Assembly: GCA_030949985.1 (NCBI GenBank)
Contig: JAUZRX010000063.1
Coordinates: 6,855-70,854, forward strand
Source: Acidobacteriota bacterium
Lineage (GTDB): Bacteria > Acidobacteriota > Polarisedimenticolia > J045
Length of the DNA: 64,000 bases
Direction: 5' to 3'
In this document: in pieces, positions 37,001 through 54,452 of the stretch
Numbering within the stretch: the first letter of the stretch is position 1
Layout of the letters: the number at the start of each line of letters is the position of its first letter
Made by a program: the position numbers and the translations under genes
Notes under the pieces: model-generated
Databases searched by the model: none
What the model was told of the DNA's origin: nothing
The model's input: the letters and a program-made list of their open reading frames with translations, nothing else

Positions 37001-37790
37001 CGTCGACCGGTCGCAGGGCGACCAGCGCCAGGGCCAGCACGACCGCCGCCGCACCGCCCAGCACCCGCCAGCGCGGGGCGACGCGCCGGCGAGTGACGAC
37101 CAGGACGGCGGCCAGGCCCACGACCAGTCCCAGCCAGGCACCCAGCGAGGCGGTCAGCACCAGCCCGAGGAGGATCAGCGGCAGGCAGGCGATGACCAGC
37201 GGCCGGGAGGACCCGCGGTCCGCCAGGACAGCGACGGCGGCCAGTCCCGCCAGCACCAGCGCCCCGGCCAGGGCGGCGGGCACCACGTGGGTGCCGAACA
37301 CCCGCCCGTGTTCGAGGCGCAGGATCATCTCGGCGGGCAGGCCGAGTCGCCGGGCCGCGGCCGCATCGAGGGCCATCAGTCCCAGACGCTGGGCCAGGGC
37401 CAGCAGCCCGAGACCCGCGCCGATCAGCGCCAGCACGAGCGGTACCTTCGCCCGGGCCGCCGCGCCGGCACCCCGGGCGGCCCAGAAAGCGGCGAGGGCC
37501 AGCACCCAACCGGCGACCACGCCGAGGCTGCGACCCGGAGCGAGGGAGACCGCGAAGTGAAAACCACCCAGCCCCACCACGCACAGGGCGGTGACGATCC
37601 CCGGGGCGGGGACAGCCACCCACAGCGCGGGAGCGAGAATCAGCGCCAGCAGAACGCCGGACAGGGGGTGAACCTCCGGCGGCAGTCCCAAGGCGATCCC
37701 GCCGGCCACGGCCACGAGAGCCGCCGGCCAGGTTCGGCGATCGACGCCCCTGGACGAGGTGTCGACAGGGCCATGACCTTCGGCCGTCAT
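34065..37790 (-). CDS. Giant polytopic protein with two O-antigen-ligase (Wzy_C)-like signatures and C-terminal TPR domain
   Basis: 1,241 aa, more than 20 TM helices. Motif 1 SETLYAHNSWLQIAAEGGWPALALL; motif 2 TFSGPHSDPLALLLALGLPAG. C-terminal about 250 aa are soluble TPR-like repeats. ATG overlaps the upstream stop (ATGA at 37787-37790). Confidence 0.7.
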   Translation of the reverse strand: MTAEGHGPVDTSSRGVDRRTWPAALVAVAGGIALGLPPEVHPLSGVLLALILAPALWVAVPAPGIVTALCVVGLGGFHFAVSLAPGRSLGVVAGWVLALAAFWAARGAGAAARAKVPLVLALIGAGLGLLALAQRLGLMALDAAAARRLGLPAEMILRLEHGRVFGTHVVPAALAGALVLAGLAAVAVLADRGSSRPLVIACLPLILLGLVLTASLGAWLGLVVGLAAVLVVTRRRVAPRWRVLGGAAAVVLALALVALRPVDVADLSRPDNPLRLRLGNWRGAVLMATAQPVTGTGLGSFGALYPRYRRAGDSETLYAHNSWLQIAAEGGWPALALLCAAAVFFFRRWRGVSGAGDGLWLLAALLAFVVHNLVDFTAYLPGVAVPAAILAGMVFARPGASDRPPTGAAPFVARAIALVLLLAAGGWWSMETASRGLMDRAMLEAAERPVSAAEVAARAARIAPWSTSRTVTAGNLLLAAGDRRSLAVLGGLLQVPLRLDSASPAPWHLLARWRLARGEVSAAWEAYRLAAIRHPAASAIRRQIEAIERAFDEKGLIGAESVPAPGEGSVPASAPAWQPWDDTLVLVGGLILLVVAVSLRRSGLVGALAVALSLVCLISAFGEGGALPGVRLVRAVVVAFAVLAWLLARSPEGRGRWPAWGGGAALVLGAWAALAAACAPAPLAARDGWLSLLTAGAILGLSFFLARENPHWIRICLTVVAAAAGLEAGLWLVQKGLLAAGVAVASRAPPLGTPNPLRPAGDFLHPGHLGTFLVVGAAALLGAGIRVSRGRALLALLLVFAGLSGGSRASLLALVAAGGVFASCASSRRLRRAVTAVVVVALVFGAAVVVWRLGYGDPYAWTRTRIWRAALEALFDRPWLGFGPGGFGPLAPRWSFEDPGSVARWSRTFSGPHSDPLALLLALGLPAGLIALALGGLGWCRAWAAARRAGSLAPVAALAAVSALLAHGLVDDLFSERPATWVVASLLAGVCLAGVARDRSGWVFEGCARRRAVALAVILAVVAGEVLPWAADRAFRAGRPEWALRLEPRSGRYALAMLERPVGRLAHVDSSRERALLARRMRPYDPLAWVRWAELEERLCRDLLPEQGACARALAGWSAALARRPEDVFARRHRARLRAHLGRLHAAEDDLRIALHTEPNFLAARLDLARVLIEQGRAGPACEQWSALESLARRLSGVRPDSRRGSALLRLSAREVAGVRQRCEALSPVTGDTGDRPAEGG

Positions 37791-39292
37791 GGAGCGCCCT
37801 GCGCGTCGGGCCCCGTCCGATGGACCCGGTAGACAGTGAAGTACATCGGATCGGGCCCCCGGACGAACATCCCGTCAAAGCGGAACAGGCCGATCCGCTC
37901 GAGCGCCAGGCCGGGGATCTCCCGCCGCAGCGGCTCGGGCGCGATCTCCACCAGCACCTCCGGGGGATGGAGGGCGAGGTAACGATCGATCGCACCCTCC
38001 CTTTTGAAGGGTACGATTTCGGGAGTCGCCAACCCATTGAGATCGAGGATCCTGCGTCCCGAGAGCAGTCCCAGGGCCCCGATGTTCGGTGTGGCGATCA
38101 CCGCGTCGAGGGGCGTTTCGGCGGCCAGACGCCGGGCCAGGGGGAAGACCACGGTCTGCATCGAGCGGCCGTAGGCCCGGGTCCGGGGCACCACGACGGT
38201 GGTGGCCAGCACCAGGTTGCCCGCCAGCGTCGCAGCCACCACGCCGCCCCACAGCCAGTTTCCCCGCACGCCATCCAGCCTCCGCGCCGCCGCCACCATC
38301 CCGGCCATGCCCACGGCCACCACCAGCGCGGTCAGGGGCAGCAGGTAGCGCGTGTAGACCCGGACGTGGCGTAGGGCATAGACCAGCAACAGCAGCACGG
38401 CGAACAGGAGCACGACGCGCACCAGGTCGCCGCGCCCCGGGGCGCGCTCCGAGCGCGCCTCGCCCTCCCCCGCCCAGAGCCACGCGGCGACCGGCAGGAA
38501 CAGCAGGGCCGGCAGCTGGGTCGACGCGACAACCACCAGGACTCGAGCGGCGGCTTCGGAAGCCCCGATGTTCATCGCGCCCAGGCTGCCCTTGGCCGCC
38601 ATGGTCGAGGGCAGCACGGTGCCCCAGGTCCGCAACGCGAAGACGCTCCAGGCCACGGCCACCAGTCCTCCCGCGAGCAGGTCCCCGGCCAGTCGGGACT
38701 CCCTGCCGCGGAAAGCCCGCCAGGCCTCCATGAGCACCACCGCGAAAGTGAACAGGGCCAGCTCGGGTCGCACCAACGGAGCGACGGCCAGCAGGAGGCT
38801 GCCCAGGCGATCGACGAGGCTGCCCCGCCCGGCCCGCACCCGGATCAGCGCCGCCCCGCACACCACGGCCACCGCCAGACCGGTCTCCATGCCGCTCCAC
38901 AGCCAGCGCGCGGTCCAGGCATCGGCCGCCAGCGCGAGGCTGGTGGCCCACGCCGCCCGTACATCGCCGGCCAGGCATCCGGCGAGCCGGGATGCGCAGA
39001 TGATGCCCACCACCCAGAAAAAAGCGGAGAGGAACTGGGCGACCCGCACTCCCCCGAAACCCACCTTGCCCAGCGACACCAGGGTCAGCAGCCAGGCTCC
39101 GGAAGAGGCGACGTCGACGTTCTGATGAGGGTTGAATCCCCAACCGCGGCCGGAGAGCACGTTGTCGACCACGCGCAGATAGATGAACAGGTCGTCCGGC
39201 TGAAAGTCGAGACAGGGCAAGGCGGCGACCACTGCCGCCAGGGCGGGGAGCATCGCCGCCCATCGGTGCGTGTGCTGCCCGCTGTCGATCAC
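37787..39292 (-). CDS. GT-C-superfamily-like integral membrane glycosyltransferase (putative)
   Basis: 501 aa. TM1 followed by LDFQPDDLFIYLRVVDNVLSGRGWGFNP (acidic DD loop motif as in ArnT/PMT/arabinosyltransferases), about 11 TM helices, soluble C-terminal domain. GTG at 39292 or ATG at 39253. Confidence 0.45.
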   Translation of the reverse strand: MIDSGQHTHRWAAMLPALAAVVAALPCLDFQPDDLFIYLRVVDNVLSGRGWGFNPHQNVDVASSGAWLLTLVSLGKVGFGGVRVAQFLSAFFWVVGIICASRLAGCLAGDVRAAWATSLALAADAWTARWLWSGMETGLAVAVVCGAALIRVRAGRGSLVDRLGSLLLAVAPLVRPELALFTFAVVLMEAWRAFRGRESRLAGDLLAGGLVAVAWSVFALRTWGTVLPSTMAAKGSLGAMNIGASEAAARVLVVVASTQLPALLFLPVAAWLWAGEGEARSERAPGRGDLVRVVLLFAVLLLLVYALRHVRVYTRYLLPLTALVVAVGMAGMVAAARRLDGVRGNWLWGGVVAATLAGNLVLATTVVVPRTRAYGRSMQTVVFPLARRLAAETPLDAVIATPNIGALGLLSGRRILDLNGLATPEIVPFKREGAIDRYLALHPPEVLVEIAPEPLRREIPGLALERIGLFRFDGMFVRGPDPMYFTVYRVHRTGPDAQGAP

Positions 39293-39448
39293 AAAGGTGA
39301 AGGCTCCCGCCGTGGACTGGATCTCCGCACGCTCATCCCGGAGACATCATACTCGCAGCGCGCCTTTTGGGAACCCGCCCTGCCGCCCAACACTGCGGAT
39401 GCGACCCTGACACGGGGCGCCCCATGATCCTCCACCCGGAGCCGAGGA

Positions 39449-39922
39449 TCAGTCGGGAGCGTTGAGAAAGCCCCCGTCGGCGAAAACGATGTCGTAATCG
39501 AACTCTCGAGCCGTCGCGCGGGATATGTTCTGAGGGCCGTCGACCCCGTCCCGGCCGTAGCTCTCGATCGTGTAATGGCTGCTGCCCGAGCTGTAGGCCA
39601 GGTCGTTTCCCCAGGCGTCGGTCGTCTCGACCCGCTTGTAGACCTGATCCGACAAGGCCGCCGACAACTCGGCTGCGGTAATGCCGTTGCGCGGGAATGC
39701 GCTGTGGTCGTTCGAGTAGGCCTCGACGGCCGTGCCGACGTTGCGGATGGTGGTCATGGTCTTGCGCTGGCGGCTCTTGTCGAGAGCAGACTGGAGATTG
39801 ACTACCGCGATGGCGGCGATGATACCGATCACGGCGACGGTGACCAGCAGTTCGACGAGAGTGAACCCCAGCGCCTGCCCGTACCGCGCGCGGGGACCGA
39901 GAGAATCCCTGTCCTTCTCCAT
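39449..39922 (-). CDS. Type IV pilin (second, minor or alternative pilin) with 19-aa leader
   Basis: [30 protein letters not shown]|FTLVELLVTVAVIGIIAAIAVVNL (G-1, F+1, E+5). C-domain shares …RQ(R/K)KTM…VGTAVEAYS…SYG(R/K)DG…FD(Y/D)DI(V/I)F(A/Q)DG(G/A)F… with pilA. Confidence 0.85.
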   Translation of the reverse strand: MEKDRDSLGPRARYGQALGFTLVELLVTVAVIGIIAAIAVVNLQSALDKSRQRKTMTTIRNVGTAVEAYSNDHSAFPRNGITAAELSAALSDQVYKRVETTDAWGNDLAYSSGSSHYTIESYGRDGVDGPQNISRATAREFDYDIVFADGGFLNAPD

Positions 39923-40007
39923 CTCCCTCCTCCTCCACGATCCTCCCCCGGCGAAAAGAAACCGGGGGCAGGCAGCGAGGCCCGCCCCCGGCCATCTCGC
40001 CCAAGGG

Positions 40008-40466
40008 CTACTGCTGCTGGCCTTCAGGCCACTGGACGAAGGCACCATCCTGGAAAATGATGTCATCGTCGAAGCTGGTGGTCTTACCGCCGGTGGCGGT
40101 GGTCTTGGTGCCGTCCTTTCCGTAGGACCGGACCGTGTAGTTGGCCCCTCCGGTGGCGGACTGGTACTTCAGGGCGTTGCTCCAGCCATCGTCATCCGGG
40201 CACTTCTTGATGTAGACCGGCTCGAGGTGGGTGTCGAGATTCCCGTTGACATCCGACTCGGTGGTGATGGTGGGGTAACGGTTGTTGTCCACCGAGTAGG
40301 CCTCGACAGCCGTGCCGACACTGCGCATATCGGCCATGGTCCGCTTCTGACGACCACGGTCGATGGCGTTGAGCAGGTTCGGGATGGCGATCGCGGCGAT
40401 AATGCCGATGATGGCCACCACGATCAGCAACTCGATGAGGGTGAATCCACGTTCGTTCCGACGCAT
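40008..40466 (-). CDS. pilA: Type IVa major pilin PilA
   Basis: GGGAGG RBS. MRRNERG|FTLIELLIVVAIIGIIAAIAIPNLL, a classic class III signal. 152 aa. Thr/Ser/Gly-rich C-terminal stretch KDGTKTTATGGKTTSFDDD. Confidence 0.9.
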   Translation of the reverse strand: MRRNERGFTLIELLIVVAIIGIIAAIAIPNLLNAIDRGRQKRTMADMRSVGTAVEAYSVDNNRYPTITTESDVNGNLDTHLEPVYIKKCPDDDGWSNALKYQSATGGANYTVRSYGKDGTKTTATGGKTTSFDDDIIFQDGAFVQWPEGQQQ

Positions 40467-40516
40467 GCTTTTGTTTCCTCCCTTAAAGCCTTAAGGTTTT
40501 CCGGACACTGTCTCCA

Positions 40517-40532
40517 AGCAATCTCGGTGCCA
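40517..40532 (-). promoter_or_regulatory. Sigma-54 (RpoN) promoter TGGCAC-N5-TTGCT upstream of pilA
   Basis: Minus strand reads TGGCACCGAGATTGCT about 50 nt upstream of the pilA ATG. A perfect -24 GG/-12 GC match, consistent with the adjacent sigma-54 activator PilR. Confidence 0.75.
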
Positions 40533-40660
40533 GAAAGGCCACTGTCCAGCATTTCGTTTAACTCCAATAGATACTTAAAGTTACATGGCCGCCCGCGGCC
40601 ACCTCGCCCCTTCCCTCGCCCGGACTGACATTCTGTGGCAAGTGGGGGTGACAATCCATG

Positions 40661-42085
40661 TCATTTCTTCCCCGCCGGGCCCGCTCCCACCAGGCCGGCC
40701 TCTTCGCGGGTGGATGAGCCCGCCGGACGCGCCGTCAGGCCGAACTTCTTCGCGAAGTAGCGGAACGAGCGAAACGTCATGCCCAGCCGCCGGGCCGCCT
40801 TCGTCTGGACGCCACCGGCCTGTTCGAGAGCCTGCTGCATGAAAACCCTGCGCTGCTCGTCGAGATAGCTTTCGAGGTCGAAGTCTTCGGGCATCGTTCC
40901 CGCTCCGGCCACCGGCAGTCCCGAACCGCCCCTGATTTCCACGGGAAGCAGATCCTCGCGCAGTTCACCCCCACTCGACAGGGCGACCATGCGCTCGAGA
41001 ACATTCTCGAGTTCCCGAACATTGCCCGGCCACGAGTAGCGGGAGAAAGCCGCGATCACCGCCGGTTCGACGGCCAGGTCTCTTCGCCCCAGCCGCTCGC
41101 CCTGCCGCAGCAGGAAGGCGGCGACCAGCTCGGGGATGTCTTCCGCCCGCTCCCGCAACGGCGGGACCTCGACCCGAATCACGTTGATCCTGTAGTAGAG
41201 GTCCTCCCGGAAGCGCCCCTCCCGGACCAGTGTGTCGAGATCCCGGTGAGTCGCAGCCAGGATACGGACGTCGATGGGAATCTCCTCGGAGCCGCCGACC
41301 CGCCGGATCCGGCGATCTTGCAGCACGCGCAGCAGCTTGACCTGCATCTGGGCCGGCATGTCGCCGATCTCGTCGAGGAAGAGAGTCCCGCCCTCGGCGG
41401 CCTCCACCAGGCCGCGCCGAGCCCGGTCCGCCCCCGTAAACGCCCCCTTGACGTGCCCGAAGAGTTCGGACTCCAGCAGGCTCGCGGGAATCGCCCCGCA
41501 ATTGATGCCGATGAAGGGATGCTCCCGGCGGGGCGAGGCCTGATGGATCGCCCGGGCGACGACCTCCTTGCCGCTTCCGGACTCACCGGTGATCAGAACC
41601 GTACTCTCGGTCGCGGCGATCCGGCCCACCACATCCCGCAGTTCCTGGGTCCGTCCGCAACTCCCGATCAGGCGCCCCTCGAGTTGCAGCCGGCTGCGCA
41701 GGCGACGGTTTTCCGCGCTCAGTCGGGCATGCCCCAGGGCCCGCCGCACGTGGAGTTGCATCTCCTCCACGTTGAAGGGCTTTTCGAGGTAGTTCACAGC
41801 CCCGTGCCGCATCGCCTCGATCGCCGTCTCCTTCGAGCCATAGGCCGTGATCACCATCGAAGGCGTCTCGGGCCGGGCCTCGCGAATCCGCCTCAGCAGC
41901 GCCAGGCCATCCATACCCGGCATGGAAAGGTCGGTGATGACCAGGTCGATATCTTCGGTCTCGAAGACCTCCAGGGCCTTCTCGGCGGAGGAAGCGCAAA
42001 GCACCCTGTGCCCGTCGGAGCGCAGGGCGGCGCGCAGCACCTCACGGATTCCTGCCTCGTCATCGACGACCAGAATCAGCGACAT
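40661..42085 (-). CDS. pilR: Sigma-54-dependent response regulator PilR (NtrC family)
   Basis: REC domain ([12 protein letters not shown]…[14 protein letters not shown]), AAA+ sigma-54 interaction domain ([21 protein letters not shown]), C-terminal Fis-type HTH. Confidence 0.9.
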
Positions 42086-43740
42086 CAGCGTTCCCCCCCC
42101 GGGGCCTCTGCCGCGGCGGCTGCGGCCACCGGAACCTGGGCAGCGGGCAGAATCAGGCGTATCTCGGTCCCGCGGCCCGGCTGGGAGACCACCTGCACCC
42201 GGCCTCCCTGCTCCTCGATGATGCGATAGACGATCGCCGCACCCAGCCCCGCTCCCGTCTCGAAGCGCCCCTGGAAGGGCTGGAAGATGGCCTTCAAGGT
42301 GGCGTCATCCATGCCGTGCCCCTCGTCGCGGAAAGAGACCTGCACCTCGTCGCCGCCGTGGCCCTCGACCCGGATCCACAGGGTGCCCCCGTCGGGCATC
42401 GCCTTCAGGGCGTTGGAGGCCAGGTTCCAGAAGACCTGGCGCATGCTGTCGGGGTCGACGAGCGCCCGTGCGCAGCCGGGCCCGGCGATCACCTCGACCC
42501 GGTGGCCGGGGTGCAACTCCGGGCTCTTGCGCAGCAGCCTGCCGAGCTGTTCCATCATCTCGACCAGGTCGCAGGGCCGGGGGTCGTGCCCCCCCGGGCG
42601 GGCGAACTTGAGAAAGTCTCGAATGATGCGATCGAGGCGGTCCGACTCGCGCAGCACGACCTCCCGCAACCTCCCGGCTTCTTCTTCGTCGCTGTTCCCG
42701 CTGGAGAGAACCTGCACCGAACCGCAGATCGCGGCGAGGGGATTGCGCAGCTCGTGCGCCATGCCGGCAGCCATCTCGCCCAGGGCCGCCATCCTCTCAC
42801 GGGTACGCACCTGCTGCTCGAGAGAGGCGATCTCGGTCAGGTCCTGGAACACGATCAACCAGCCCTGGTGCTCACCCTCCGGCCCCCGCAAGTAGGACAC
42901 GCTGAAGCCGAGAAACAGGCGTTGTCCGTCCGCCGGACGCCGCCAGTCCCGCTCGAAACGAAAGCGACGCCCGGCGGCCAGGTGCTGGCCGGCACCCTGG
43001 GGGAACGACTCGGGCAGGTCGAAAACCTCGGCTGCCCGCCGCCGACGAAGCTGAACCGGGTCGGCCCGCAGAATTTCCAGCCCCGCCCGATTGATGAACG
43101 AGATCCGGCCATCGGGCTCGGTCGTCATCAGCCCGGTGCCGATGGAAGCGACGATGTCGGCGTGCAGAGCGCGCAACGCGATCAAGTCCTGGCGCTGCTC
43201 TTCGAGCTCTTCCCCCTGCCGCTCGAGGCGGTCGGCCAGCACCCCCCCCAGGGCTCCCAGGGCGGCAAAGGCGACGAGGTGAGAGACCGCCAGATAGAGC
43301 GCCCGCCCCGGCGGCAATTCCGTGGGCGGCAGATGCCAGGACGACCACGCCAGGAGCAGGGCGTAGAAGCCGCCCAGGATGCCCGCCGTGTAGACCCCGC
43401 CCCGCAGCCCCGCGAGAGCCGCGGCCATCATCACCGGAACCGCCAGCAGGAAAGACAGCGGCGAAAGTCCGCCCCCCGTGGCGACCAGGAAGCCGAAAAC
43501 CAGCAGGGCGTCGCCGCAAACCTGAACCACCACCATCGGCGGACCGCCACCGAGGAAGCGATCGAGCAGGGCGTAGGTCAACACGGCGGCGTAGGCACAG
43601 CCGGACAGCAGGTAGAAGGGGGTCAGGGAGCGACCGGGGTTGAAAAGAACCTCGATCACCACCGAAGCCAGCAGGAGGCTCGTCACGGCCACCGCCCGTG
43701 CGACGTTCAGTCGTCTCAGGCTTCGCCGCCGGGGATCCAC
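42085..43740 (-). CDS. pilS: Sensor histidine kinase PilS
   Basis: GTG start with AGGAGG RBS. Six N-terminal TM helices, PAS, HisKA (AAGMAHELRNPLAAI), HATPase_c. Stop overlaps the pilR start (ATGA). Confidence 0.85.
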   Translation of the reverse strand: MDPRRRSLRRLNVARAVAVTSLLLASVVIEVLFNPGRSLTPFYLLSGCAYAAVLTYALLDRFLGGGPPMVVVQVCGDALLVFGFLVATGGGLSPLSFLLAVPVMMAAALAGLRGGVYTAGILGGFYALLLAWSSWHLPPTELPPGRALYLAVSHLVAFAALGALGGVLADRLERQGEELEEQRQDLIALRALHADIVASIGTGLMTTEPDGRISFINRAGLEILRADPVQLRRRRAAEVFDLPESFPQGAGQHLAAGRRFRFERDWRRPADGQRLFLGFSVSYLRGPEGEHQGWLIVFQDLTEIASLEQQVRTRERMAALGEMAAGMAHELRNPLAAICGSVQVLSSGNSDEEEAGRLREVVLRESDRLDRIIRDFLKFARPGGHDPRPCDLVEMMEQLGRLLRKSPELHPGHRVEVIAGPGCARALVDPDSMRQVFWNLASNALKAMPDGGTLWIRVEGHGGDEVQVSFRDEGHGMDDATLKAIFQPFQGRFETGAGLGAAIVYRIIEEQGGRVQVVSQPGRGTEIRLILPAAQVPVAAAAAAEAPGGER

Positions 43741-43815
43741 CTTACCCTACCTCCTGCCTGCCCTACGGGCCCCACCCAGCCGGCGTCTATCGCGCCACGG
43801 CAACCCCGAACGCGG

Positions 43816-45018
43816 TCAGCCGATCTTTCCGATGAGGCTGAACATCGGCATGTACATCGAAATCACGATGCCGCCGATGATGGTTCCGAGAAACACGATC
43901 ATGATCGGCTCGAGCAGGGACAGCAGGTTCTGGGTCGCCTCGTCCACCTCGTCTTCGTAGAAGTCGGCGATCTTGCTCAACATCGTGTCCATCGCGCCTG
44001 TCTGCTCTCCGACAGCGATCATCTGCACGACCATGTCGGGAAAGACCCGGGTCTCCCGCAGCGGTTCGGAAACCGTCTTACCTTCCTCGACGCTCCTCCG
44101 CACCTCGTAGATCGCATCCTCCACGATAGCGTTTCCGGAGGTTCGCGCGCAGATATCGAGGCCGTCGAGAATCGGCACGCCGGAGGAGGTCAGAGTCGAG
44201 AGCGTGCGGCAGAAACGAGAGACCGCGATCTTTCGCAGCAACATGCCGATCACGGGAATCTTCAGCAGCATCATGTCGATGACATGCCGCCCCTTGTCGG
44301 TCTTGTAGTACTGCTTGATGCCGAATCCGAGTCCAACCATGCCGCCGATCATCAGCCACCACCAGCGGCGGAGGAAATGACTCAGCGCGATGGTCAGCCG
44401 CGTGGGCATCGGCAGTTCCGCGCCCAGCCCGGTGAAGAGATCGGCGAAAACCGGGATCACGAAGGTCAGGATGACCCAGACCACGACTCCCGCGATGGCC
44501 AGTACCGCCACCGGGTAGATCAGCGCGCCCCGCACCGCCGCCTTGAGCTTGACGATCTTTTCGATGTAGACCGAAAGGCGCTGGAGAATCGTGTCCAGAA
44601 TACCGCCGGTCTCTCCCGCGGCGACCATGTTCGAGTAGAGGTCGTCGAAGACCCGCGGATGCTTGCGCATGGCATCGGCCAGCGTGGAGCCGGCTTCGAC
44701 ATCGGCCCGCACGGCGTTGAGCACGCCCTGAAAGACCTTGTTCGGCTGCTGTCCGGCCAGGATCTCGAGGCACTGCACGAGCGGCAGACCCGCGTCGATC
44801 ATCACTGAAAACTGGCGCGTGAAAACCGACAGCTCCTTCTGCTTGACGCCGCCGCGCAGTCGCGGCAAGGCGATCTCACGACCTTTTTCGGTGACCGAGG
44901 AAACGATGACGCCCTGGCGCCGGAGAGCTGCTACGGCCTCGTCCCGGGTCTTTGCATCGACCGTGCCTTCCCGGGCCTCACCTGTGCGCGTGCGACCCTT
45001 GTAGACGAAAGTAGCCAT
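43816..45018 (-). CDS. pilC: Type IV pilus platform protein PilC (GspF family)
   Basis: GGAGGAG RBS. Two GspF repeats (…FTRQFSVMIDAGLPLVQCLEIL…, …FCRTLSTLTSSGVPILDGLDIC…). 400 aa. Confidence 0.9.
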   Translation of the reverse strand: MATFVYKGRTRTGEAREGTVDAKTRDEAVAALRRQGVIVSSVTEKGREIALPRLRGGVKQKELSVFTRQFSVMIDAGLPLVQCLEILAGQQPNKVFQGVLNAVRADVEAGSTLADAMRKHPRVFDDLYSNMVAAGETGGILDTILQRLSVYIEKIVKLKAAVRGALIYPVAVLAIAGVVVWVILTFVIPVFADLFTGLGAELPMPTRLTIALSHFLRRWWWLMIGGMVGLGFGIKQYYKTDKGRHVIDMMLLKIPVIGMLLRKIAVSRFCRTLSTLTSSGVPILDGLDICARTSGNAIVEDAIYEVRRSVEEGKTVSEPLRETRVFPDMVVQMIAVGEQTGAMDTMLSKIADFYEDEVDEATQNLLSLLEPIMIVFLGTIIGGIVISMYMPMFSLIGKIG

Positions 45019-45033
45019 TGTGAATCTCTCCTC

Positions 45034-46143
45034 CTATCTCCGGCCCCGTACGGGGGCTCCGCCGCCGAGTGCTCCAACGCCGCGGTTGATCATTTCCTGC
45101 AGTTCCTCCGGGTTGTGCGAAACATCGAGGGCGACCTGCATCGAGATCTGGCGACGGAAATAGAGCGTGGCGAGAGATTGGTTGAAGGTTTGCATGCCGT
45201 GCTGGGCCTGCCCGGTCTGCATCATGGAGTAGATCTGGTGGACCTTGTCTTCCCGGATCAAGTTCCTGATCGCGGAATTCGGCACGAGGATCTCCATCGC
45301 CAGCACCCGTGCGCGTCCGTTGACGTGCGGCAGCAGCGACTGACAGAGGATGCCTTCGAGCACGAGGGAAAGCTGGGACCGAACCTGCGGCTGCTGATTG
45401 GCGGGAAAGACGTCGATAATGCGATTGATCGTCTGCGAAGCCGAATTGGTGTGCAGGGTCGCGAAGGTCAGGTGTCCCGTCTCGGCGATGCGCAGCGCGC
45501 ACTCGATCGTCTCCAGGTCACGCATCTCACCGATCAGAACCACGTCCGGATCTTGCCGCAGCACGGACCGCAACGCGTTGGGAAAGGACTTGGTATCCGC
45601 TCCCAGTTCGCGCTGGTTGACCAGGCAGCGCTTGTGGGAGTGCAGGTACTCGACAGGATCCTCGATGGTGACGATATGGGCCTGGCGCTCCCGGTTGATC
45701 TTGTCGATCATCGCCGCCAGGGTCGTACTCTTACCCGATCCGGTGGGTCCGGTGACGAGCACCAGCCCGCGGGGCCGGTCGGCAAGGGTCGCGATGACCT
45801 CCGGCAGGCCGAGTTCCTGGAAGGACTTGATCTCCCAGGGGATCGTGCGGAAGGCCGCCGCCACGGCGCCTCGCTGGAGGAAGACATTGGCCCGGAAACG
45901 AGCCAGGCCTTTCATCCCGAAGGAAAAGTCCAGTTCCAGGTTGTCCTCGAAACGGTGCTTCTGCTGGTCGGTCATCACCGAGTAGACGAGGGCCTTGGTC
46001 TCGGCGGCATTGAGGGCCGGCATCTGCAAGGGTACGAGCAGGCCGTGAATCCGGATCTGGGGCGGCGAATTGGTCGTGATGTGGAGATCGGTACCCCCCT
46101 GTTCGACCATCGTCTTGAGCAACTGCTGCAGCGATACAGCCAC
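45034..46143 (-). CDS. pilT: Twitching-motility retraction ATPase PilT
   Basis: GTG start with GAGGAG RBS. GLVLVTGPTGSGKSTT Walker A. …AHIVTIEDPVE…, AIRNLIREDK and GMQTF PilT signatures. 369 aa. Confidence 0.9.
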   Translation of the reverse strand: MAVSLQQLLKTMVEQGGTDLHITTNSPPQIRIHGLLVPLQMPALNAAETKALVYSVMTDQQKHRFEDNLELDFSFGMKGLARFRANVFLQRGAVAAAFRTIPWEIKSFQELGLPEVIATLADRPRGLVLVTGPTGSGKSTTLAAMIDKINRERQAHIVTIEDPVEYLHSHKRCLVNQRELGADTKSFPNALRSVLRQDPDVVLIGEMRDLETIECALRIAETGHLTFATLHTNSASQTINRIIDVFPANQQPQVRSQLSLVLEGILCQSLLPHVNGRARVLAMEILVPNSAIRNLIREDKVHQIYSMMQTGQAQHGMQTFNQSLATLYFRRQISMQVALDVSHNPEELQEMINRGVGALGGGAPVRGRR

Positions 46144-46188
46144 CTTCGTCTCCTCACTCCCCCGGGGCCCGGGGCACGCCGTACGCCA

Positions 46189-47922
46189 TCAGAACACCGT
46201 CTCCCGGACGACCTCATCGATCGTGGTCATGCCTGCCGCGATTTTTCGCAGGCCCGAACGACGGAGGGTGATCATGCCTTCCTCAACCGCCTGGCGCTTG
46301 AGTTCCAGCGCGCTGCATCCGGTGAGGATCATTTCGCGAATCTCCTCCGAGACTTCCAGAACCTCGAAGAGTCCGACCCGTCCCTTGTAGCCCGTGTTGT
46401 TGCAGGTCGGGCAACCGCGTCCCTTCAGCGGCGTGCAGGTCTCGGCCTCCTCCGGGGTGAACCCGATGTCGATCAGCGCCTGGGGCGGGATCTGCTGCTC
46501 CTGTCGGCAGTCCTTGCAGACCCGCCGCACGAGGCGCTGAGCACAGATCAGGTTGACGCTCGTAGCCACGAGGAAGGGCTCGATGCCCATGTTCATCAGG
46601 CGATTGATCGTCGAGGGCGCATCGTTGGTATGCAGGGTCGAGAGCACGAGATGGCCGGTCAGGGCGGCCTTGACCGCGATTTCGGCGGTTTCGAAGTCAC
46701 GGATCTCACCGATCAGGATGATGTCGGGGTCTTGCCGCAGAAAGGATCGCAGGGCCTCGGCGAAGGTCAGGCCGATCTGCTCCTTGGTCTGGACCTGGTT
46801 GATCCCGTGGAGATTGAACTCCACCGGATCTTCCGCCGTCATGATGTTGGTCTCGGGCTTGTTGATTCTGCTGATCGAGGAATAGAGAGTGTTCGTCTTA
46901 CCGGACCCGGTGGGCCCGGTCACCAGGACCATGCCCCAGGGCTTGAGGATCGCCCGCTCGAAGGCCTCGAAAGACTCGTCCTCGAACCCCAGCTTGGTCA
47001 GGTCGAGACAGAGATTTTCCTTGTCCAGCAGACGAAGCACGACCTTTTCGCCGAAGAGCGTGGGGACGCAGGAGACACGGTAGTCCATCTCGCGCGTCCG
47101 GTCGTCGAGCTTCATCTTGATCTTGATTCGACCGTCCTGGGGCAGTCGACGCTCGGCGATATCGAGCTTGGACATGATCTTGATGCGGCTGATGATCGCG
47201 TCTTTCAGCTTGGCCGGGGGATGCATGTATTCGTGGAGCACGCCGTCGATGCGGAAACGGACGCGGAAGTCCTTCTCGTAACTCTCCACGTGGATGTCCG
47301 AAACCCCCTTGTGGATCGCATCGACCAGGATGCGGTTGACGATCTTGACCACCGGCGCGTCGGCGCTGAGGTTCTCGAGGCTCGAAGCGTCGATCTCGTC
47401 CTCGTCGGCCATCAGCTCGACGTCTTCTTCGTCGGGCCCGGTCAACTCGAACTCTTCGTCGGCCTCGTTGGTTTCGAAGAGGTCCAGGCGCTTTTCTTCG
47501 TAGGAATGCTCGATCGCCTCGCGCAGGGCGAACTCGCTGGCCAGTACAGGCTCCACCTCGCATCCCGTCCTGAAACGGATGTCATCGAGGGCCACCACGT
47601 TGGTCGGATCCGCCATGGCGAGGGTCAGGATGTTGCCCGTCTTGTGTACCGGGAAGACCAGGTAGCGCCCGGCGATGTCTTCCGGGATCAGGTCGAGCAG
47701 GTCACGGTCGACGTGGGGAAAGAGGCTCCGCAGGTCGATGGCCGGGATGCCGTACTGCTCAGAGAGGAGGTGGACGAGATCTTCCTCGCTCACCGCGCCG
47801 GTCTGAACCAGGTGGTAACCCAGCTTACCCCCCTCGGCCTTCTGGCGTTCAAGGGCTTCAGCCAGGGCCTCCCGGGTTAACAGCCCTTCGCTGAGCAGCA
47901 GATCTCCGATGCGATCCGACAT
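46189..47922 (-). CDS. pilB: Type IV pilus extension ATPase PilB
   Basis: N-terminal MshEN-like domain, GMVLVTGPTGSGKTNT Walker A, tetracysteine CKDC…CPTC. ATG at 47922 (MSDRIG); the frame opens at TTG 47928. Confidence 0.9.
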   Translation of the reverse strand: MSDRIGDLLLSEGLLTREALAEALERQKAEGGKLGYHLVQTGAVSEEDLVHLLSEQYGIPAIDLRSLFPHVDRDLLDLIPEDIAGRYLVFPVHKTGNILTLAMADPTNVVALDDIRFRTGCEVEPVLASEFALREAIEHSYEEKRLDLFETNEADEEFELTGPDEEDVELMADEDEIDASSLENLSADAPVVKIVNRILVDAIHKGVSDIHVESYEKDFRVRFRIDGVLHEYMHPPAKLKDAIISRIKIMSKLDIAERRLPQDGRIKIKMKLDDRTREMDYRVSCVPTLFGEKVVLRLLDKENLCLDLTKLGFEDESFEAFERAILKPWGMVLVTGPTGSGKTNTLYSSISRINKPETNIMTAEDPVEFNLHGINQVQTKEQIGLTFAEALRSFLRQDPDIILIGEIRDFETAEIAVKAALTGHLVLSTLHTNDAPSTINRLMNMGIEPFLVATSVNLICAQRLVRRVCKDCRQEQQIPPQALIDIGFTPEEAETCTPLKGRGCPTCNNTGYKGRVGLFEVLEVSEEIREMILTGCSALELKRQAVEEGMITLRRSGLRKIAAGMTTIDEVVRETVF

Positions 47923-48111
47923 CCGCAACCGGCTCCTTTGCGGCCGCGCGGCGCGCGCGCCCGGTCACCGGCGACACCCCTGCCGCCAGGCAACACCTTC
48001 GGGAAGCTCCGGAGTCAAACTTGTGTGCCGGTCGGGAAAGGGTCAAGGCGGGAATGGCGGGGATCTCGCGGAATCGGGAGACAGCGGGGCGGGGCGCTCG
48101 ACTTTCGCCGA

Positions 48112-49470
48112 CTATGCGCCCCGCGCTTTCCGGCGCGCGAGGAACTCCTCCATGAAACGGGTGGAGAAATCGCCGTCCCGGAACCCGGGTTCCGCCACCA
48201 GCTCCTTGAGCAGGGGCAGATTGGTCGTGATGCCTTCGATCACGAAGAAGTCCAGGGCCCGGCCAAGGCGGGAGAGCGCCTCGTCGCGATCCCGGCCGCG
48301 CACGATCAGCTTGGCGATCATCGAGTCGTAGTGCGGCGAGACCTGGTAGCCGGCGTAGGCCGCGGTATCGATGCGGACTCCAGGCCCCCCGGGAGGATGG
48401 AAGGTCGTAATCGGCCCGGGACAGGGGCGGAAGGTCCAGGGGTCCTCCGCCGTCACCCGGGCTTCGATGCTCCACCCGCGAGGCTCGAGATCGTCCTGGC
48501 CATAGCCCAGGGGCTCCCCGGCCGCGATACGGATCTGCTCCTTGAGAAGATCGAGACCGGCGACGTTCTCCGTCACGGGGTGTTCGACCTGGATCCGCGT
48601 GTTCATCTCCATGAAATAGAACGAACGGTCTTCGTCGAGCAGGAATTCCACGGTACCCGCGTTCTGGTATTCCACCGCCCGGGCGGCCTGCACCGCGGCA
48701 CGCCCCATCTCGACCCGCAGGGCCTCGTCGAGCGCCGGAGAGGGGGCCTCCTCGATCACCTTCTGGTGGCGCCGCTGGAGCGAGCACTCCCGTTCGAAGA
48801 GGTGAACGATATTCCCGTGCAGGTCCCCGAGGATCTGGAACTCGATGTGGCGCGGCCGGACGATGAATTTCTCGAGATACAGCTCTCCCGAACCGAAGCC
48901 GGCCAGAGCCTCGGACCGACAGGTCTCGACGGCGCTTTCCAGGTCCTCCGGCCTTTCGACGACCCGCATCCCCCGACCGCCGCCCCCGGCCGCCGCCTTG
49001 ACGATCACCGGATAGCCGATTGCCTTGGCCAGCTCCGCCGCCTCCTCGAAAGACTCGAGGGTTCCCCGGCTGCCGGGAATCACGGGCACACCGGCGCTGA
49101 TCATCGCGGCCCGTGCCGCGGCCTTGTCGCCCATCTGCCGAATCGTCGCCGCCTGGGGTCCGATGAAGCTCAGGCCGCACTCGGCGCAAATCTCGGCGAA
49201 GTGCGGATTCTCGGCGAGAAAGCCATAGCCGGGGTGGATCGCATCGGCACCGGTGATCTCGGCAGCCGAGATGATGGCCCCGATGTTGAGGTAAGAGTCG
49301 GTCGACCGGGCAGGACCGATACACACGTCCTCGTCGGCGAAACGGACGTGGAGCGAATCCTGGTCGGCGTCGCTGTGCACCGCCACGGTGCGAATGCCCA
49401 GTTCCTTGCAGGCCCAAATGATCCGCAGCGCAATCTCGCCGCGGTTGGCGATGAGTATCTTCTCGAACAT
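48112..49470 (-). CDS. accC: Acetyl-CoA carboxylase biotin carboxylase subunit
   Basis: [17 protein letters not shown]…, ATP-grasp, …[14 protein letters not shown]…. 452 aa. Confidence 0.9.
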
Positions 49471-49479
49471 GGTCGTCGT

Positions 49480-49947
<468 letters not shown>

Positions 49948-51061: not shown

Positions 51062-53338
51062 TCAAGAGGCCTTGATGATCCGCGGCGTGATGAAAATCAG
51101 CAGCTCGCGGTTGCGCGTCTGAATATTCTTCGAGCGGAACAGCCAGCCGAGTCCCGGCAGCTTGCGGAACCAGGGAACGCCCGTTTCACTCCGCCCCTCG
51201 TTGACCGTGAAGATACCGCCGATCACGGTCGTTCCGCCGTCTCCGATCAGGACCTTGGTCGTCGCCCGTTGGGTGTTGATGGCAGGCACTTCGCCAACGG
51301 TGTTGACGAAGTCCGGCGAGTTGTTCTCGACCTCGATCTCCAGCACCACTGTTCCCTCGGCCGTGATCTGGGGCGTGACCTCGAGCCGCAGCGAAGCCGA
51401 GACGAAGCGCACGTCGATCTCCGTGGCCGTGGTGCTGACCACCGGGATGCGCACACCCTGCTCGATCTCCGCCATCTCGTTGTTCTGAGTGGCGATCTTC
51501 GGGCTCGACAGCCGTCGGGCGTAGCCTTCGGTCTCGAGAGCGTCGAGAGTGATGTCCAGCGTCACCGAATCCAGCACGTTGCCGAAGGAGAACCCGAGGG
51601 CCGAGGCCGCGGGGTTACGTGCCAGGTTCAGGTCGAAGGCCCCGGCGGCCCGATGTGGAAACTGAAGGTTGGTCTGCGTTCCATTCCCCGGATCCGCCGC
51701 AGCGAAGAGACCCCAGCGAACGCCCAGATCTTTGACGAAGTCCCGGGAGACCTCGACGATGCGGGCCTCGATCATGACCTGGGGGGTCTCGGCGTCGAGG
51801 GTCGTGAGCAGCTTGTCGATCGCCTCGACACGGGTGGGAATGTCACGAATGATCAGGGTATTGGTCCGCTCATCGACGATCACCCGGCCCTTGCGGCTGA
51901 GAATGCCGTCCCGCACCACGGCCTGGACCTCCTTGGCCTTGGCGTAGGAGAGGGTCCGCGTGATGGTGACCGGCGGAACTTCAAGCTCCTTGGCCTCGAA
52001 CAGGGCCTTGCGCGCCGCCGATTCCTGGGCGAGCTTGGAGATCGGCGCAATCCGGATCACGTTGCCCTCGAGCACCATGTCCAGGCCGTTGTTCTTGAGA
52101 ATCAGGTCGAGGGCCTGGTCCCAGGGGACATCGTCGACAACGATGGTCACGACCCCCGACACGGCGGGATCCAGGACGAAGTTGAGCCCGGAGATGTCAT
52201 GGAAGAGGCTGAAGACCTGCTTGATGTCGGCGTCGATGAGCTGCAGCGAGACTTTGCGCCCGCTGTAGACCCTGCGTGCGTCCTCGATGGTCTTGGCCTC
52301 GGTATCCGGCAGGGGCACGACCTCGGCCCGACCGGTTTCGACCGGCAACGAGACGGTGTCGTGGCGCGGGGCCTCGACCCGGGTCGCCAGGCCCGCGGCC
52401 TCCTCCACCACCTGGGCGATCTCGGGCTCCTGCCAGGCCGTAGCCGGCGGCGGGGCGGCGGGAAGGCCGGAAGTCGGAGCCGGTTTGGCCACCGGCTCGG
52501 TCAGGGATGGGGTCGCCGGTGATTCCGGCACCGTCCCGGTGGCCGGCTCCGGAACTTCCATCGCCTCGCCGCCCCCGGGGGCCGGCGCGGCAGGCTCGGC
52601 GACAGGAGACGCAGGAGCCTCCAGGCGGACTTCCCGGGGAGCGGGTACCGTCTCCGCTGCGATCGCCATTTCCACCGGGGTTCCCGGCTCCGCATCACTC
52701 GCGGTCGCGTACATCGCCGGATCGGGTTCCGCCCGCGGCGGCTCCGGCACCACGGGCGCCGGCGCCACGGCGCTCGCCAGCGACGCCTCCGGCTCCCCGG
52801 AAGACCCGGGAGCCTCCGAGGGCTGGGCCTGAGTCATCGGCAGAGGGTCGCCCCCCTGGGGACTCACGCGAATCAACAGGTGCGTACCTTCGCGGACGAC
52901 ACTCCACTCCATCGGCTCGAGCAGGTCGAGGACCACCCTCGCCATGGGCGTGGGATCTTCCTGGTACTGGCCCACGCGGACCCGCACCAGGGTGTCACTT
53001 CCGACCTCGAGGCGCTGGCCGGCCTGGGGAGCCACCACGCCGGGCAGATCGAAGACGATCCGATCCGGTCCCGTCAGCGTGAAGACCTGGTAGGCCAGGG
53101 CGCCGTCGGCCTCGAGCCACACCTCGTACATGCCGCCCGAAGTCGGTTCGCTCACCGTCACTTCGCTCAGGCGAGCCGCTGGTGCCAGGCCTTCCGGCAC
53201 CGGTTCCGATGCCAGCAGAGGCGGGCGATCGTCGTAGGCGTCACCGCTCATGCCCATCACGGCCGGTGCCGCAAAGGCGATGGCGATCGTCAATGCCAGG
53301 AACCAACTGGTATGGCCCCGGAGGTAGCCCCTCCTCAT
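51062..53338 (-). CDS. pilQ: Type IV pilus secretin PilQ
   Basis: Signal peptide, AMIN domain, about 180-aa Pro/Ala/Glu-rich linker, N0/N1 domains, secretin core (…VLIGDGGTTVIGGIFTVNEG…ETGVPWFRKLPGLGWLFRSKNIQTRNRELLIFITPRII). 758 aa. Confidence 0.9.
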   Translation of the reverse strand: MRRGYLRGHTSWFLALTIAIAFAAPAVMGMSGDAYDDRPPLLASEPVPEGLAPAARLSEVTVSEPTSGGMYEVWLEADGALAYQVFTLTGPDRIVFDLPGVVAPQAGQRLEVGSDTLVRVRVGQYQEDPTPMARVVLDLLEPMEWSVVREGTHLLIRVSPQGGDPLPMTQAQPSEAPGSSGEPEASLASAVAPAPVVPEPPRAEPDPAMYATASDAEPGTPVEMAIAAETVPAPREVRLEAPASPVAEPAAPAPGGGEAMEVPEPATGTVPESPATPSLTEPVAKPAPTSGLPAAPPPATAWQEPEIAQVVEEAAGLATRVEAPRHDTVSLPVETGRAEVVPLPDTEAKTIEDARRVYSGRKVSLQLIDADIKQVFSLFHDISGLNFVLDPAVSGVVTIVVDDVPWDQALDLILKNNGLDMVLEGNVIRIAPISKLAQESAARKALFEAKELEVPPVTITRTLSYAKAKEVQAVVRDGILSRKGRVIVDERTNTLIIRDIPTRVEAIDKLLTTLDAETPQVMIEARIVEVSRDFVKDLGVRWGLFAAADPGNGTQTNLQFPHRAAGAFDLNLARNPAASALGFSFGNVLDSVTLDITLDALETEGYARRLSSPKIATQNNEMAEIEQGVRIPVVSTTATEIDVRFVSASLRLEVTPQITAEGTVVLEIEVENNSPDFVNTVGEVPAINTQRATTKVLIGDGGTTVIGGIFTVNEGRSETGVPWFRKLPGLGWLFRSKNIQTRNRELLIFITPRIIKAS

Positions 53339-53859
53339 GCTTCATCCTCCTCGACGAGATCCTCGTCCGACGGGTAGAGCCTCTTGATCACGTCCCGATA
53401 TGGCTTGATCCGGCGCGGATCGTCCACATTCTGGCGAAAGACCACGACACCCCGGTCGGGATCGATGGAAAGCACGCGGCCGTCGTAGACCACGTCCCCG
53501 ACGCGCAGCGTGTAGCCGCGATTGTCACTGCCGCTGAACAGGGCCGCCGGATAGCCCCTGGCATCGATCACGATGCCCTTGAGGTCGATCTCCGAGACCA
53601 GCATGCCGGCGATGCCCTTGGGCCGCTTACCCGTCGCAGCCGTCGGCGTCGCGCGGACCAGTGGTTCGAAGGGATCGCGACGGCCGGCGGGATCGTAGGT
53701 GAAGTGCCGTCCGGTAATCACGGACTCGCTGTCCCGCTCGATGCGATCCATCATCGCGTCGTGGCCCTCCCCGGGAGCCGTGGATGGCTGGCCGAAGGCG
53801 GAGACCACGGCCAGAGCGGCCAGTCCAAAAGTCACCAGCGCTGTTGCCCGGCGGATCAT
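53335..53859 (-). CDS. pilP: Pilus assembly lipoprotein PilP
   Basis: ATG at 53859 overlaps the pilO stop. Signal peptide/lipobox region, then …RDPFEPL… and a beta-domain. Stop overlaps the pilQ start (ATGA). Confidence 0.75.
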   Translation of the reverse strand: MIRRATALVTFGLAALAVVSAFGQPSTAPGEGHDAMMDRIERDSESVITGRHFTYDPAGRRDPFEPLVRATPTAATGKRPKGIAGMLVSEIDLKGIVIDARGYPAALFSGSDNRGYTLRVGDVVYDGRVLSIDPDRGVVVFRQNVDDPRRIKPYRDVIKRLYPSDEDLVEEDEA

Positions 53860-54452
53860 CACGGAGCACCTCCTTCGGCAGCCGCGGCATCCTCGCGGAA
53901 GATGAAGGTCTTGGCGACGAACGAGGCCGCGATGGTCGCGGTTCGTACCGAGCGGTTGGTATTGGGGGTGATGCGCACGTTCTCGACGTTGATGATGCGC
54001 GCGTGCTTGCTGACCCGGTCGAAGAACATGCCCAGCTGGTGGTAGGTGCCCACCACGTTCATCCGAATCGGCTGCTCCTTGAGCAGCTCCTGTTCCTGCA
54101 GCGGCTGGGGATTGAACAAACGCAGATCCAGGTTGGCCTGATCGGCGAGGGACTTGATCCACTTGAGCAGATCACCCAGTTCGGGTTCGGTGGGCAGGAT
54201 CGCCTTGAGGTCGGCAAGCTTGAGTTCCAGCGCGGCGATATCACGCTCCAACTCGTCGAGCTTGGCCAGTGCCAGCTTGCCCTGGCGGATCTTGGCCTGC
54301 GTGTCCTCGATCCTGGTGGTCAGGTCCTCGATCTTCGCCTTCTTGGCCGACAGATTGGCCGGGGCCATGGAGTAGCTCAGCCAGATCAAGACGCCGCCGA
54401 CGACGGCAGCCAGGATCAGGTGACCCCACCAGGGCATGTTCTTGAAGTCCAT
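53859..54452 (-). CDS. pilO: Pilus assembly protein PilO
   Basis: MDFKNMPWWGHLILAAVVGGVLIWLSY TM, then a coiled coil, then …VVGTYHQLGMFFDRV…. Starts 2 nt after the pilN stop. Confidence 0.8.
   Translation of the reverse strand: MDFKNMPWWGHLILAAVVGGVLIWLSYSMAPANLSAKKAKIEDLTTRIEDTQAKIRQGKLALAKLDELERDIAALELKLADLKAILPTEPELGDLLKWIKSLADQANLDLRLFNPQPLQEQELLKEQPIRMNVVGTYHQLGMFFDRVSKHARIINVENVRITPNTNRSVRTATIAASFVAKTFIFREDAAAAEGGAP

Follow-up and report, generated by a model that had tools for sequence, protein, structure and literature searches.

A probable sigma-54-dependent, PilR-controlled promoter of the major type IV pilin gene in an uncultured Acidobacteriota bacterium, with a candidate PilR operator

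Control of pilin genes by PilS and PilR through sigma-54 is textbook knowledge for Pseudomonas, Myxococcus, Geobacter and Neisseria. In Geobacter the genes are arranged in the order pilB-pilT-pilC-pilS-pilR-pilin, and in Pseudomonas aeruginosa pilSR is not known to adjoin pilA as it does at the locus described here. Myxococcus xanthus reportedly has the order pilS-pilR-pilA and a sigma-54-dependent pilA gene, in work attributed to Wu and Kaiser and dated to 1997. The Geobacter pilR gene adjoins an RpoN-dependent pilA promoter that was mapped by 5'-RACE (PMC2725144), and Geobacter mutants in IHF lose PilA (PMC7962754). In commensal Neisseria (N. elongata), the region ahead of pilE holds an Npa activator site, then a site for IHF and then an RpoN box, and the gene is controlled by a PilS/PilR-like pair; the IHF site of Neisseria pilE is recognisable, and its mutation lowers transcription (PMC6528607). 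P. aeruginosa possesses a PilS with a multi-helix membrane domain, an NtrC-class PilR and a sigma-54 pilin promoter (PMC6058289, PMC10418997), and the hallmarks of its PilR site, as cited in PMC6058289, are TGT-N11-AGA and nearby GTCT elements.

We analysed a 64-kb stretch of DNA from an uncultured Acidobacteriota bacterium (64,000 nucleotides, hereafter the window), in which domain searches identified a type IVa pilus cluster comprising pilM, pilN, pilQ, pilB, pilT, pilC, pilS, pilR and a pilin gene, all on the same strand. Upstream of pilS lie, in that direction, pilC, pilT, pilB, pilQ (a secretin with AMIN and Secretin domains), pilN and pilM, and the completeness of the cluster makes the name pilA (major pilin) reasonable for pilin 1. 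The sequence of the region between pilR and this gene, 40467-40663, indicates that the major type IV pilin gene is very probably transcribed from an enhancer-dependent promoter located there, served by sigma-54 and by the adjacent PilR. The type of circuit is already known, and the acidobacterial case is ordinary PilS/PilR/sigma-54 control of a pilin gene. In sequence, domain content and gene context the locus shows the defining features of both a sigma-54 promoter and a PilSR pair; the IHF consensus and a P. aeruginosa-type operator are absent. The coordinates of all features are collected in Table 1.

Table 1. Features of the pilS-pilR-pilin locus, in positions of the window; relative positions refer to the predicted transcription start
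Feature	Position	Strand	Description
pilS	42085..43740	-	Sensor kinase: PilS-type six-helix membrane domain, PAS, HisKA, HATPase_c
pilR	40661..42085	-	Sigma-54-dependent response regulator: REC, AAA+, HTH_8
Candidate activator site I	40649..40663	-	Perfect palindrome TGACATGGATTGTCA; TGACR-N5-YGTCA
Candidate activator site II	40626..40640	-	TGCCACAGAATGTCA; 1 mismatch; promoter-proximal half-site GTCAG conserved
AT-rich island	40539..40592	-	Candidate bendable spacer; about -86 to -33
Sigma-54 promoter	40517..40532	-	TGGCAC-CGAGA-TTGCT = TGGCACCGAGATTGCT; GG 40531-40530, GC 40519-40518
Small palindrome GACAGTGTC	40504..40512	-	4-nt arms, 1-nt spacer; from -6 to +3; regarded as coincidental
Predicted transcription start	40506	-	12 nt downstream of the -12 C
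CCTTAAGG-CTTTAAGG duplication	40481..40496	-	In the leader, CCTTAAGGCTTTAAGG; potential 6-bp RNA hairpin
Shine-Dalgarno GGGAGG	40477..40482	-	10 nt before the ATG; AAGGGAGG invariant in alignment A1
Pilin 1	40008..40466	-	152-aa prepilin, 7-aa leader, G/FTLIELL, T2SSG-type globular domain
Terminator	39950..39993	-	Intrinsic, downstream of pilin 1; GC-rich stem of 14 bp, then a T-run
Pilin 2	39449..39922	-	157 aa, 19-aa leader; pilin 1 paralogue (Pfam, NCBIfam)

The regulatory proteins encoded next to the promoter have the expected composition. PilR combines REC, sigma-54 AAA+ and Fis-type HTH domains, the architecture of a PilR-type response regulator (Pfam Response_reg 3e-31, Sigma54_activat 6.5e-73 and HTH_8 6e-9, with AAA_lid_14 also present), and its translation contains Asp52, the Walker A motif GESGSGKE and the GAFTGA loop. 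Among the NCBIfam matches listed for PilR, all equivalog models score below their cut-offs (NtrC 458 against 558.6, PEP_resp_reg 405 against 502.6), and the best 25 matches include no model named PilR. PilS carries the Pfam domain PF25323 6TM_PilS (1e-8, 35.5 bits with a cut-off of 27) together with PAS_4, HisKA and HATPase_c. The closest relatives of PilR are found in Acidobacteriota metagenome-assembled genomes, at loci L001 (86% identity) and L002 and L062 (66-67%). These three loci and the window make up the alignment referred to below as A1, which thus spans 66-86% PilR identity.

Pilin 1 begins with MRRNERG/FTLIELLIVVAIIGIIAAIAIPN, that is, with a leader ending in Gly, followed by an N-methylatable Phe, Glu5 and a hydrophobic alpha-1 helix, as in prepilins. 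It matches the Pfam families N_methyl (9.6e-11) and T2SSG as well as TIGR02532, is 97% identical to the pilin of L001 and is presumed to be the major type IVa pilin. Its globular domain is GspG-like, and we considered the pseudopilin GspG of a type II secretion system (T2SS) as an alternative identity; the score against TIGR01710 is 78.2 bits, below the equivalog cut-off of 88.85, and the context of pilT, pilMN and an AMIN-type pilQ contradicts this assignment, belonging to a type IVa pilus and not to a T2SS.

With Geobacter sulfurreducens the locus shares a pilR gene directly upstream of the one for the pilin, a short intergenic region that contains an RpoN -24/-12 promoter, and the gene order pilB-pilT-pilC-pilS-pilR-pilin. 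It differs in the phylum, Acidobacteriota, and in the pilin, which with 152 aa and a T2SSG-type globular domain is not a truncated geopilin. With N. elongata pilE it has in common the succession of activator site, bending-site position and GG-N10-GC, as well as a PilS/PilR-like two-component pair. The likeness to P. aeruginosa extends to a PilS sensor with a multi-helix membrane domain, an NtrC-class PilR, a sigma-54 pilin promoter and a TGTC core inside the putative binding sites. The order pilS-pilR-pilA is the same as in M. xanthus, and the N-terminal 70 residues of pilin 1 match the NCBIfam model typeIV_PilA_Myxo at 1.4e-15; however, this match is limited to the N-terminal helix and reaches 57.8 bits against a cut-off of 400, whereas the globular domain resembles GspG.

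The -24/-12 element TGGCACCGAGATTGCT (40532-40517, minus strand) is the sole exact match to TGGCAC-N5-TTGCW in the 64-kb window, and none of 100 dinucleotide shuffles contained any match. When one mismatch was allowed, 1.08 matches were already expected per window, making that scan uninformative, and therefore the exact match alone is significant by itself. The GG and GC are placed exactly 10 nt apart within an extended consensus, and the element is intergenic and on the same strand as pilin 1. An initial annotation of this DNA, whose sequences and coordinates we recovered exactly where it gave them, had placed such a box about 50 nt upstream of the pilA ATG and 130 nt downstream of pilR, with a pilin gene on one side and a sigma-54 activator gene on the other. 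The distances measured are 51 nt from the -12 C (40518) to the ATG (40466) and 128 nt from the pilR stop codon (40661-40663) to the box, and both the consensus scan and the domain assignments of the flanking genes bear this description out. Furthermore, a cognate enhancer-binding protein with the GAFTGA motif is available in the form of the PilR encoded at 40661-42085.

Conservation of the element provided further support for its function. Alignment A1 shows no change in the GG and GC, in contrast to a variable 5-nt spacer between the two blocks. A search of genomes for PilR homologues returned 80 loci, and a pilin gene lies directly downstream only in L001, L002, L062 and L027, the remaining loci presumably being other NtrC-family paralogues; a metagenome scan with the pilin alignment added about 37 further orthologous loci, giving a set of 41 orthologous pilin loci. 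Requiring at most 2 mismatches, with GG and GC kept, within 130 nt upstream of the gene, we found a sense-strand box in 29 of the 41 loci and an antisense box in none (0/41), compared with a background of 0.011 per 130 nt, although these counts, like those given below for the palindrome, overstate independence because several loci are close relatives (the window and L001, L002 and L062, L096 and L113). The distance from box to start codon ranges from 28 to 100 nt across the 29 loci, and a relaxed filter raises the number of box-bearing loci to 33 of 41. The orientation and position of the box are thus conserved in the orthologous loci. From the standard geometry of sigma-54 promoters we infer a transcription start near 40506.

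Upstream of the box we observed two related palindromic elements. Candidate site I is the sole perfect TGAC-N7-GTCA in the 64-kb window; its centre lies 125 nt upstream of the -24 GG, and it opens with the three letters of the pilR stop codon (TGA, 40663-40661). Its half-sites are invariant in A1 and the palindrome is perfect in L001, L002 and L062. In the latter two, 27 nt separate it from the end of pilR, so its conservation is explained neither by coding constraint nor by the overlap with the stop codon. Candidate site II follows 23 bp closer to the promoter, with its centre 102 nt upstream of the GG, and its TGTCAG is invariant in A1. The initial annotation had expected activator sites for PilR in 40590-40660, and the two candidates fall there, except that the first runs 3 nt beyond this interval, into the pilR stop codon.

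Such sites recur in many lineages beyond the closest relatives. A site centred 99-105 nt from the GG is found in L092-L095, L100, L101, L103 and L106, and a half-degenerate second copy 22-23 bp towards the promoter is present, by a reading made partly by eye, in the window, L001, L002, L062, L092, L093 and L095. In a 130-nt search interval upstream of the box, a perfect TGAC-N7-GTCA occurs in 14 of 28 loci, where about 0.002 would be expected per locus, and when one mismatch is allowed and the search is extended to 200 nt of the box, a copy is found in 23/28 loci against a background of 0.089. Positions 5 and 11, both of which were unconstrained in the search, are a purine in 25 of 27 sites and a pyrimidine in 26 of 27, respectively, which yields the consensus TGACR-N5-YGTCA; the two positions are mutually complementary, as would be expected for a palindrome bound by a dimer. 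This consensus is found in 27 of the 33 box-bearing loci and in none of the 8 loci that have no box (Fisher p = 3e-5). It persists in loci whose GC content spans 29-74%, and it occurs likewise in loci with another pilin gene or an unrelated gene upstream in place of pilR. The helical phase of the activator site relative to the box, assessed by eye on the basis of the distances, revealed no consistent pattern.

The palindrome is probably the sequence bound by PilR, as suggested by its position, its co-occurrence with sigma-54 boxes, the adjacency of pilR and a recognition segment of the HTH domain, (S/T)(F/Y)RS(F/L/I)RY, that is conserved in the upstream activators of L083, L090, L100, L101, L103 and L106. 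It does not resemble the P. aeruginosa site as cited in PMC6058289: within 40533-40680 we found no TGT-N11-AGA, GTCT or [CG]TGTC in sense orientation, and the only reverse-complement match in this interval, GACAG at 40546, lies by the box and outside both sites. In place of those cited hallmarks the locus has a 15-bp palindrome in one perfect and one half-degenerate copy. Bare TGTC cores within 40533-40680 are confined to the two palindromic sites, so that, apart from this common core, the candidate operator of the window looks different, and the assignment of the palindrome to PilR relies on position and co-occurrence. A literature search found no published palindromic PilR operator. We put forward tentatively, as a reading somewhat short of probable, that TGACR-N5-YGTCA may be a previously undescribed PilR operator, unlike the P. 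aeruginosa site, common to a widespread family of GspG-headed type IVa pilins in uncultured lineages that span 29-74% GC. Such an operator would typically consist of a perfect palindrome and a half-degenerate copy 22-23 bp away, one site having its centre some 100-105 nt upstream of the -24 GG.

Site II (40626-40640) is followed towards the promoter by a GC-rich stretch and then, ahead of the box (40517-40532), by a segment of unusual composition. The lowest GC content of any 40-nt stretch in the 64 kb, 0.30, is reached at 40547, and 40539-40592 is the sole island in the 64 kb in which the 40-nt GC content falls to 0.375 or below (mean 0.682, sd 0.077; about 5 sd below the mean). This unique minimum, and its placement where a bending site would be expected, agree with the initial annotation, which had pointed to an AT-rich island in the position of IHF sites; the IHF consensus itself is missing and the AT-richness proved to be lineage-specific, the lowest 40-nt GC of the region between pilR and the pilin gene being 0.30 in the window, 0.38 in L001 and 0.55 in L002 and L062. 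Across the family, we read this position as one where a bending or flexible element would belong, represented in the window by an AT-rich segment without a recognisable IHF core.

Two explanations of the island can be weighed. The first, to which we assign an even chance, is that it serves only as spacer DNA, either flexible or bent by its own sequence, or reflects neutral drift of composition in this lineage, and has no sequence-specific protein partner, so that looping would rely on DNA flexibility or on non-specific proteins of the HU type. Consistent with this, the island contains no recognisable consensus, and its sequence and composition differ between the window and L001 despite the 97% identity of their pilins. 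L002 and L062 have lost the AT-richness while retaining the promoter and the activator sites, and in L085, L096 and L113 the palindrome is just 38-39 nt from the GG, which leaves no room for a bending site. On the other hand, the most AT-rich 40 nt in 64 kb would be an extreme outcome of drift alone, and good IHF-like sites exist at the same position in several relatives, which speaks against a mere spacer.

The latter observation leads to the second explanation, that IHF binds specifically to the island and so bends the DNA that separates the PilR sites from the promoter, an arrangement proven for pilE of commensal Neisseria; we consider this possible but rather doubtful. The centre of the island, about 60 nt upstream of the predicted start and between activator sites and box, would suit such a role, and both the production of PilA in Geobacter (PMC7962754) and the transcription of pilE in Neisseria (PMC6528607) require IHF. 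In L001 the IHF-like site TAAGATGTTGACT has 1 mismatch (shuffle p = 0.02), sites with 1 mismatch are centred 45-49 nt from the GG in L083, L086 and L090, and in L101, L103 and L106 a perfect match, TATCAAnnnnTTA, occupies the equivalent position. Against this reading, the island of the window has no match to the IHF consensus WATCAANNNNTTR at one mismatch or fewer, the best match on both strands having 3 mismatches (shuffle p = 0.91), although this comparison uses the E. coli consensus, which may not hold for acidobacterial IHF. At the position homologous to the IHF-like site of L001 the window reads TAACTTTAAGTAT, so that the TTGA core is lost. L002 and L062 combine a poor IHF match (3 mismatches) with the absence of AT-richness, the best match in these and many other loci having 3-4 mismatches, and a motif search of the 64-kb window found no gene for IHF or HU. 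The segment thus differs from the equivalent one of Neisseria pilE in being AT-rich without the IHF consensus.

A smaller element, between the promoter and the ribosome-binding site, had been annotated as a GGACAnTGTC palindrome that might act as an operator or an RNA hairpin. The sequence GGACACTGTCTCC is indeed present (40503-40515, plus strand), and the perfect palindrome inside it is GACA-G-TGTC alone, with arms of 4. An RNA hairpin was rejected: the palindrome GACAGTGTC spans -6 to +3 of the predicted start, and hence only 3 nt of it would be transcribed. It is also very unlikely that GACAGTGTC is a functional operator, such as a pair of PilR half-sites or a repressor site that blocks open-complex formation. 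It has the same GACA/TGTC cores as the upstream sites, overlaps the region melted by the sigma-54 holoenzyme and is identical in L001, but this identity carries no information, since the leader of that close relative is nearly identical throughout, and the element is absent from L002 and L062 in A1. Its spacing is N1, in contrast to the conserved N7 of the upstream sites, and palindromes of its size are at chance level in the 194-nt intergenic region (4 compared with 2.61 +/- 1.75 in shuffles, p = 0.27). Neither proposed role of the palindrome is thus upheld.

The CCTTAAGG-CTTTAAGG duplication in the leader could form the hairpin CCUUAAGG (CCUUAA/UUAAGG, 6 bp), which is weak (-5.0 kcal/mol) and reaches into the ribosome-binding site as far as its first two G; the duplication is deleted in L002 and L062 and is lineage-specific. 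The leader RNA folds no better than its shuffles (z = -0.27), and an Rfam search of 39000-41500 at E <= 1 gave two chance-level matches, both elsewhere, and no known RNA element in the leader.

The reading least probable of all, and one we regard as highly improbable, is that the box for sigma-54 has become vestigial, as it has in pathogenic Neisseria, where pilE uses RpoD (PMC6528607), and that the pilin gene's transcripts arise at a sigma-70 promoter or by read-through from pilSR: no terminator was detected between pilR and the pilin gene and no RpoN-box motif marks an rpoN gene within the 64-kb window, but the box matches the consensus perfectly, constraint on its GG and GC is evident across many lineages, the intact activator gene encodes the GAFTGA motif, no sigma-70-like promoter was found in the intergenic region (40467-40660) and the activator-site palindromes co-occur with the box.

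Returning to the preferred reading of a sigma-54 promoter controlled by PilR, the presence of rpoN in the genome is assumed because the activator gene is intact, and as no terminator was detected after pilR, read-through from pilSR could contribute to pilin transcription. The features described would combine into the following mechanism. RNA polymerase with sigma-54 would bind TGGCAC-N5-TTGCT (40532-40517) as a closed complex, and the membrane kinase PilS would phosphorylate PilR on Asp52. PilR dimers would then occupy the two TGACR-N5-YGTCA sites, I and II, and the bound PilR would assemble into an AAA+ oligomer. The intervening DNA, including the AT-rich and presumably flexible segment 40539-40592, would loop, allowing the GAFTGA loops of PilR to contact sigma-54, and ATP hydrolysis would open the promoter so that transcription begins near 40506. 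The predicted product has a 40-nt leader with the strong GGGAGG ribosome-binding site, followed by pilin 1; the strong terminator would end most transcripts, and read-through may supply pilin 2 and the downstream membrane proteins.

The terminator after pilin 1 folds as RNA with -48.2 kcal/mol (z = -5.03), and L001, L002 and L062 have an equivalent hairpin of different sequence after the pilin gene. Pilin 2 is kept in the same three loci. No promoter of its own was detected for pilin 2, with no sigma-54-like box nearby, and two sigma-70-like matches (9 of 12) fall within or after the gene; it is probably expressed by read-through of the terminator. The combination of a terminator after pilin 1 and a pilin 2 without a detected promoter suggests an abundant monocistronic pilin mRNA, with read-through serving the downstream genes.

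The locus extends the known PilS/PilR/sigma-54 circuit to a poorly studied and mostly uncultured phylum and does not represent a new circuit. What is gained is modest and consists of a precise annotation of the promoter, the candidate activator sites, the ribosome-binding site and the terminator. It also offers a case of a promoter in which activator sites and -24/-12 box are preserved around a presumed bending element that changes quickly. The consensus of the candidate operator is the one mildly new product of the analysis: as a conserved candidate PilR operator, TGACR-N5-YGTCA may serve in genome scans for additional PilR targets and, if it is indeed a new operator, PilR regulons would become predictable directly from metagenome-assembled genomes.

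The position of the TGAC-N7-GTCA palindrome, the inferred PilR binding site, relative to the sigma-54 box was examined across pilR-pilin and orthologous pilin loci. In three metagenomic relatives (L085, L096 and L113), only 38-39 nt separate the centre of the palindrome from the -24 GG downstream of it, which is far below the spacing usual for enhancer-binding proteins. At ~38 nt from the GG there is therefore no space for a bending site in these promoters. Pilin genes stand in tandem in L085 and in two further loci (L087 and L088); the ORF upstream ends in a pilin-like C-terminus, and the downstream pilin copy carries its own sigma-54 box.

Two orthologous pilin loci, L092 and L094, retain the upstream palindrome at ~104-105 nt and feature a -12 element that reads GG or GA instead of the canonical GC (boxes TGGCATTTGCCTTGGG and TGGCACGACGATTGAT). 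These boxes may represent weakened or decaying sigma-54 promoters, or else assembly errors. In the more distant locus L027, a sigma-54 box is present (TGGCATCACCCTTGCG) and TGAC-N7-GTCA is absent from the segment analysed, which contains the inverted repeats CTGCACG...CGTGCAG and GCAGATTG...CAATCTGC. These repeats suggest that the PilR lineage of L027 recognises a different operator.

Features at the pilin locus, in the pilus cluster and in L027
Feature	Coordinates	Strand	Remarks
Terminator hairpin	window 39950-39993	(-)	very stable (z = -5.0); directly after pilin 1
Two genes directly 3' of both pilins	window 34065-39292	(-)	501-aa and 1241-aa proteins
584-aa ORF	window 47858-49612	(-)	pilus cluster, between pilB and pilQ
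275-aa ORF	window 53335-54162	(-)	pilus cluster, between pilQ and pilN
Long ORFs antisense to real genes	window 34590-37832, 42316-44808, 45115-47880	(+)	830-1080 aa
pilR-pilin locus L027	L027 4371-4586		more distant; PilR identity 45%

The terminator hairpin that follows pilin 1, the presumed major type IVa pilin, is also found 3' of the pilin in the acidobacterial relatives L001, L002 and L062, where the structure is kept and the sequences differ. Beyond this hairpin, 85 nt past the stop codon of pilin 1, begins a second, paralogous pilin gene, whose product has a leader peptide of unusual length, 19 aa (MEKDRDSLGPRARYGQALG/FTLVELL). Within the pilus cluster, neither the 584-aa nor the 275-aa ORF was assigned a family in a Pfam search at E <= 1e-5; the latter occupies the expected place of pilO/pilP. 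We rejected the antisense ORFs as genes, as their high content of R, G, P and Q is typical of spurious frames in DNA of ~68% GC.

Downstream of the two pilins, the 501-aa product is a multi-pass membrane protein with no match in Pfam or NCBIfam, and the 1241-aa product combines a Wzy_C (O-antigen-ligase) domain with TPR repeats. In P. aeruginosa, pilin glycosylation enzymes (TfpO/PilO) are encoded adjoining pilA, a position resembling that of these two genes. By analogy, the 501-aa and 1241-aa proteins could act as pilin-modifying enzymes.
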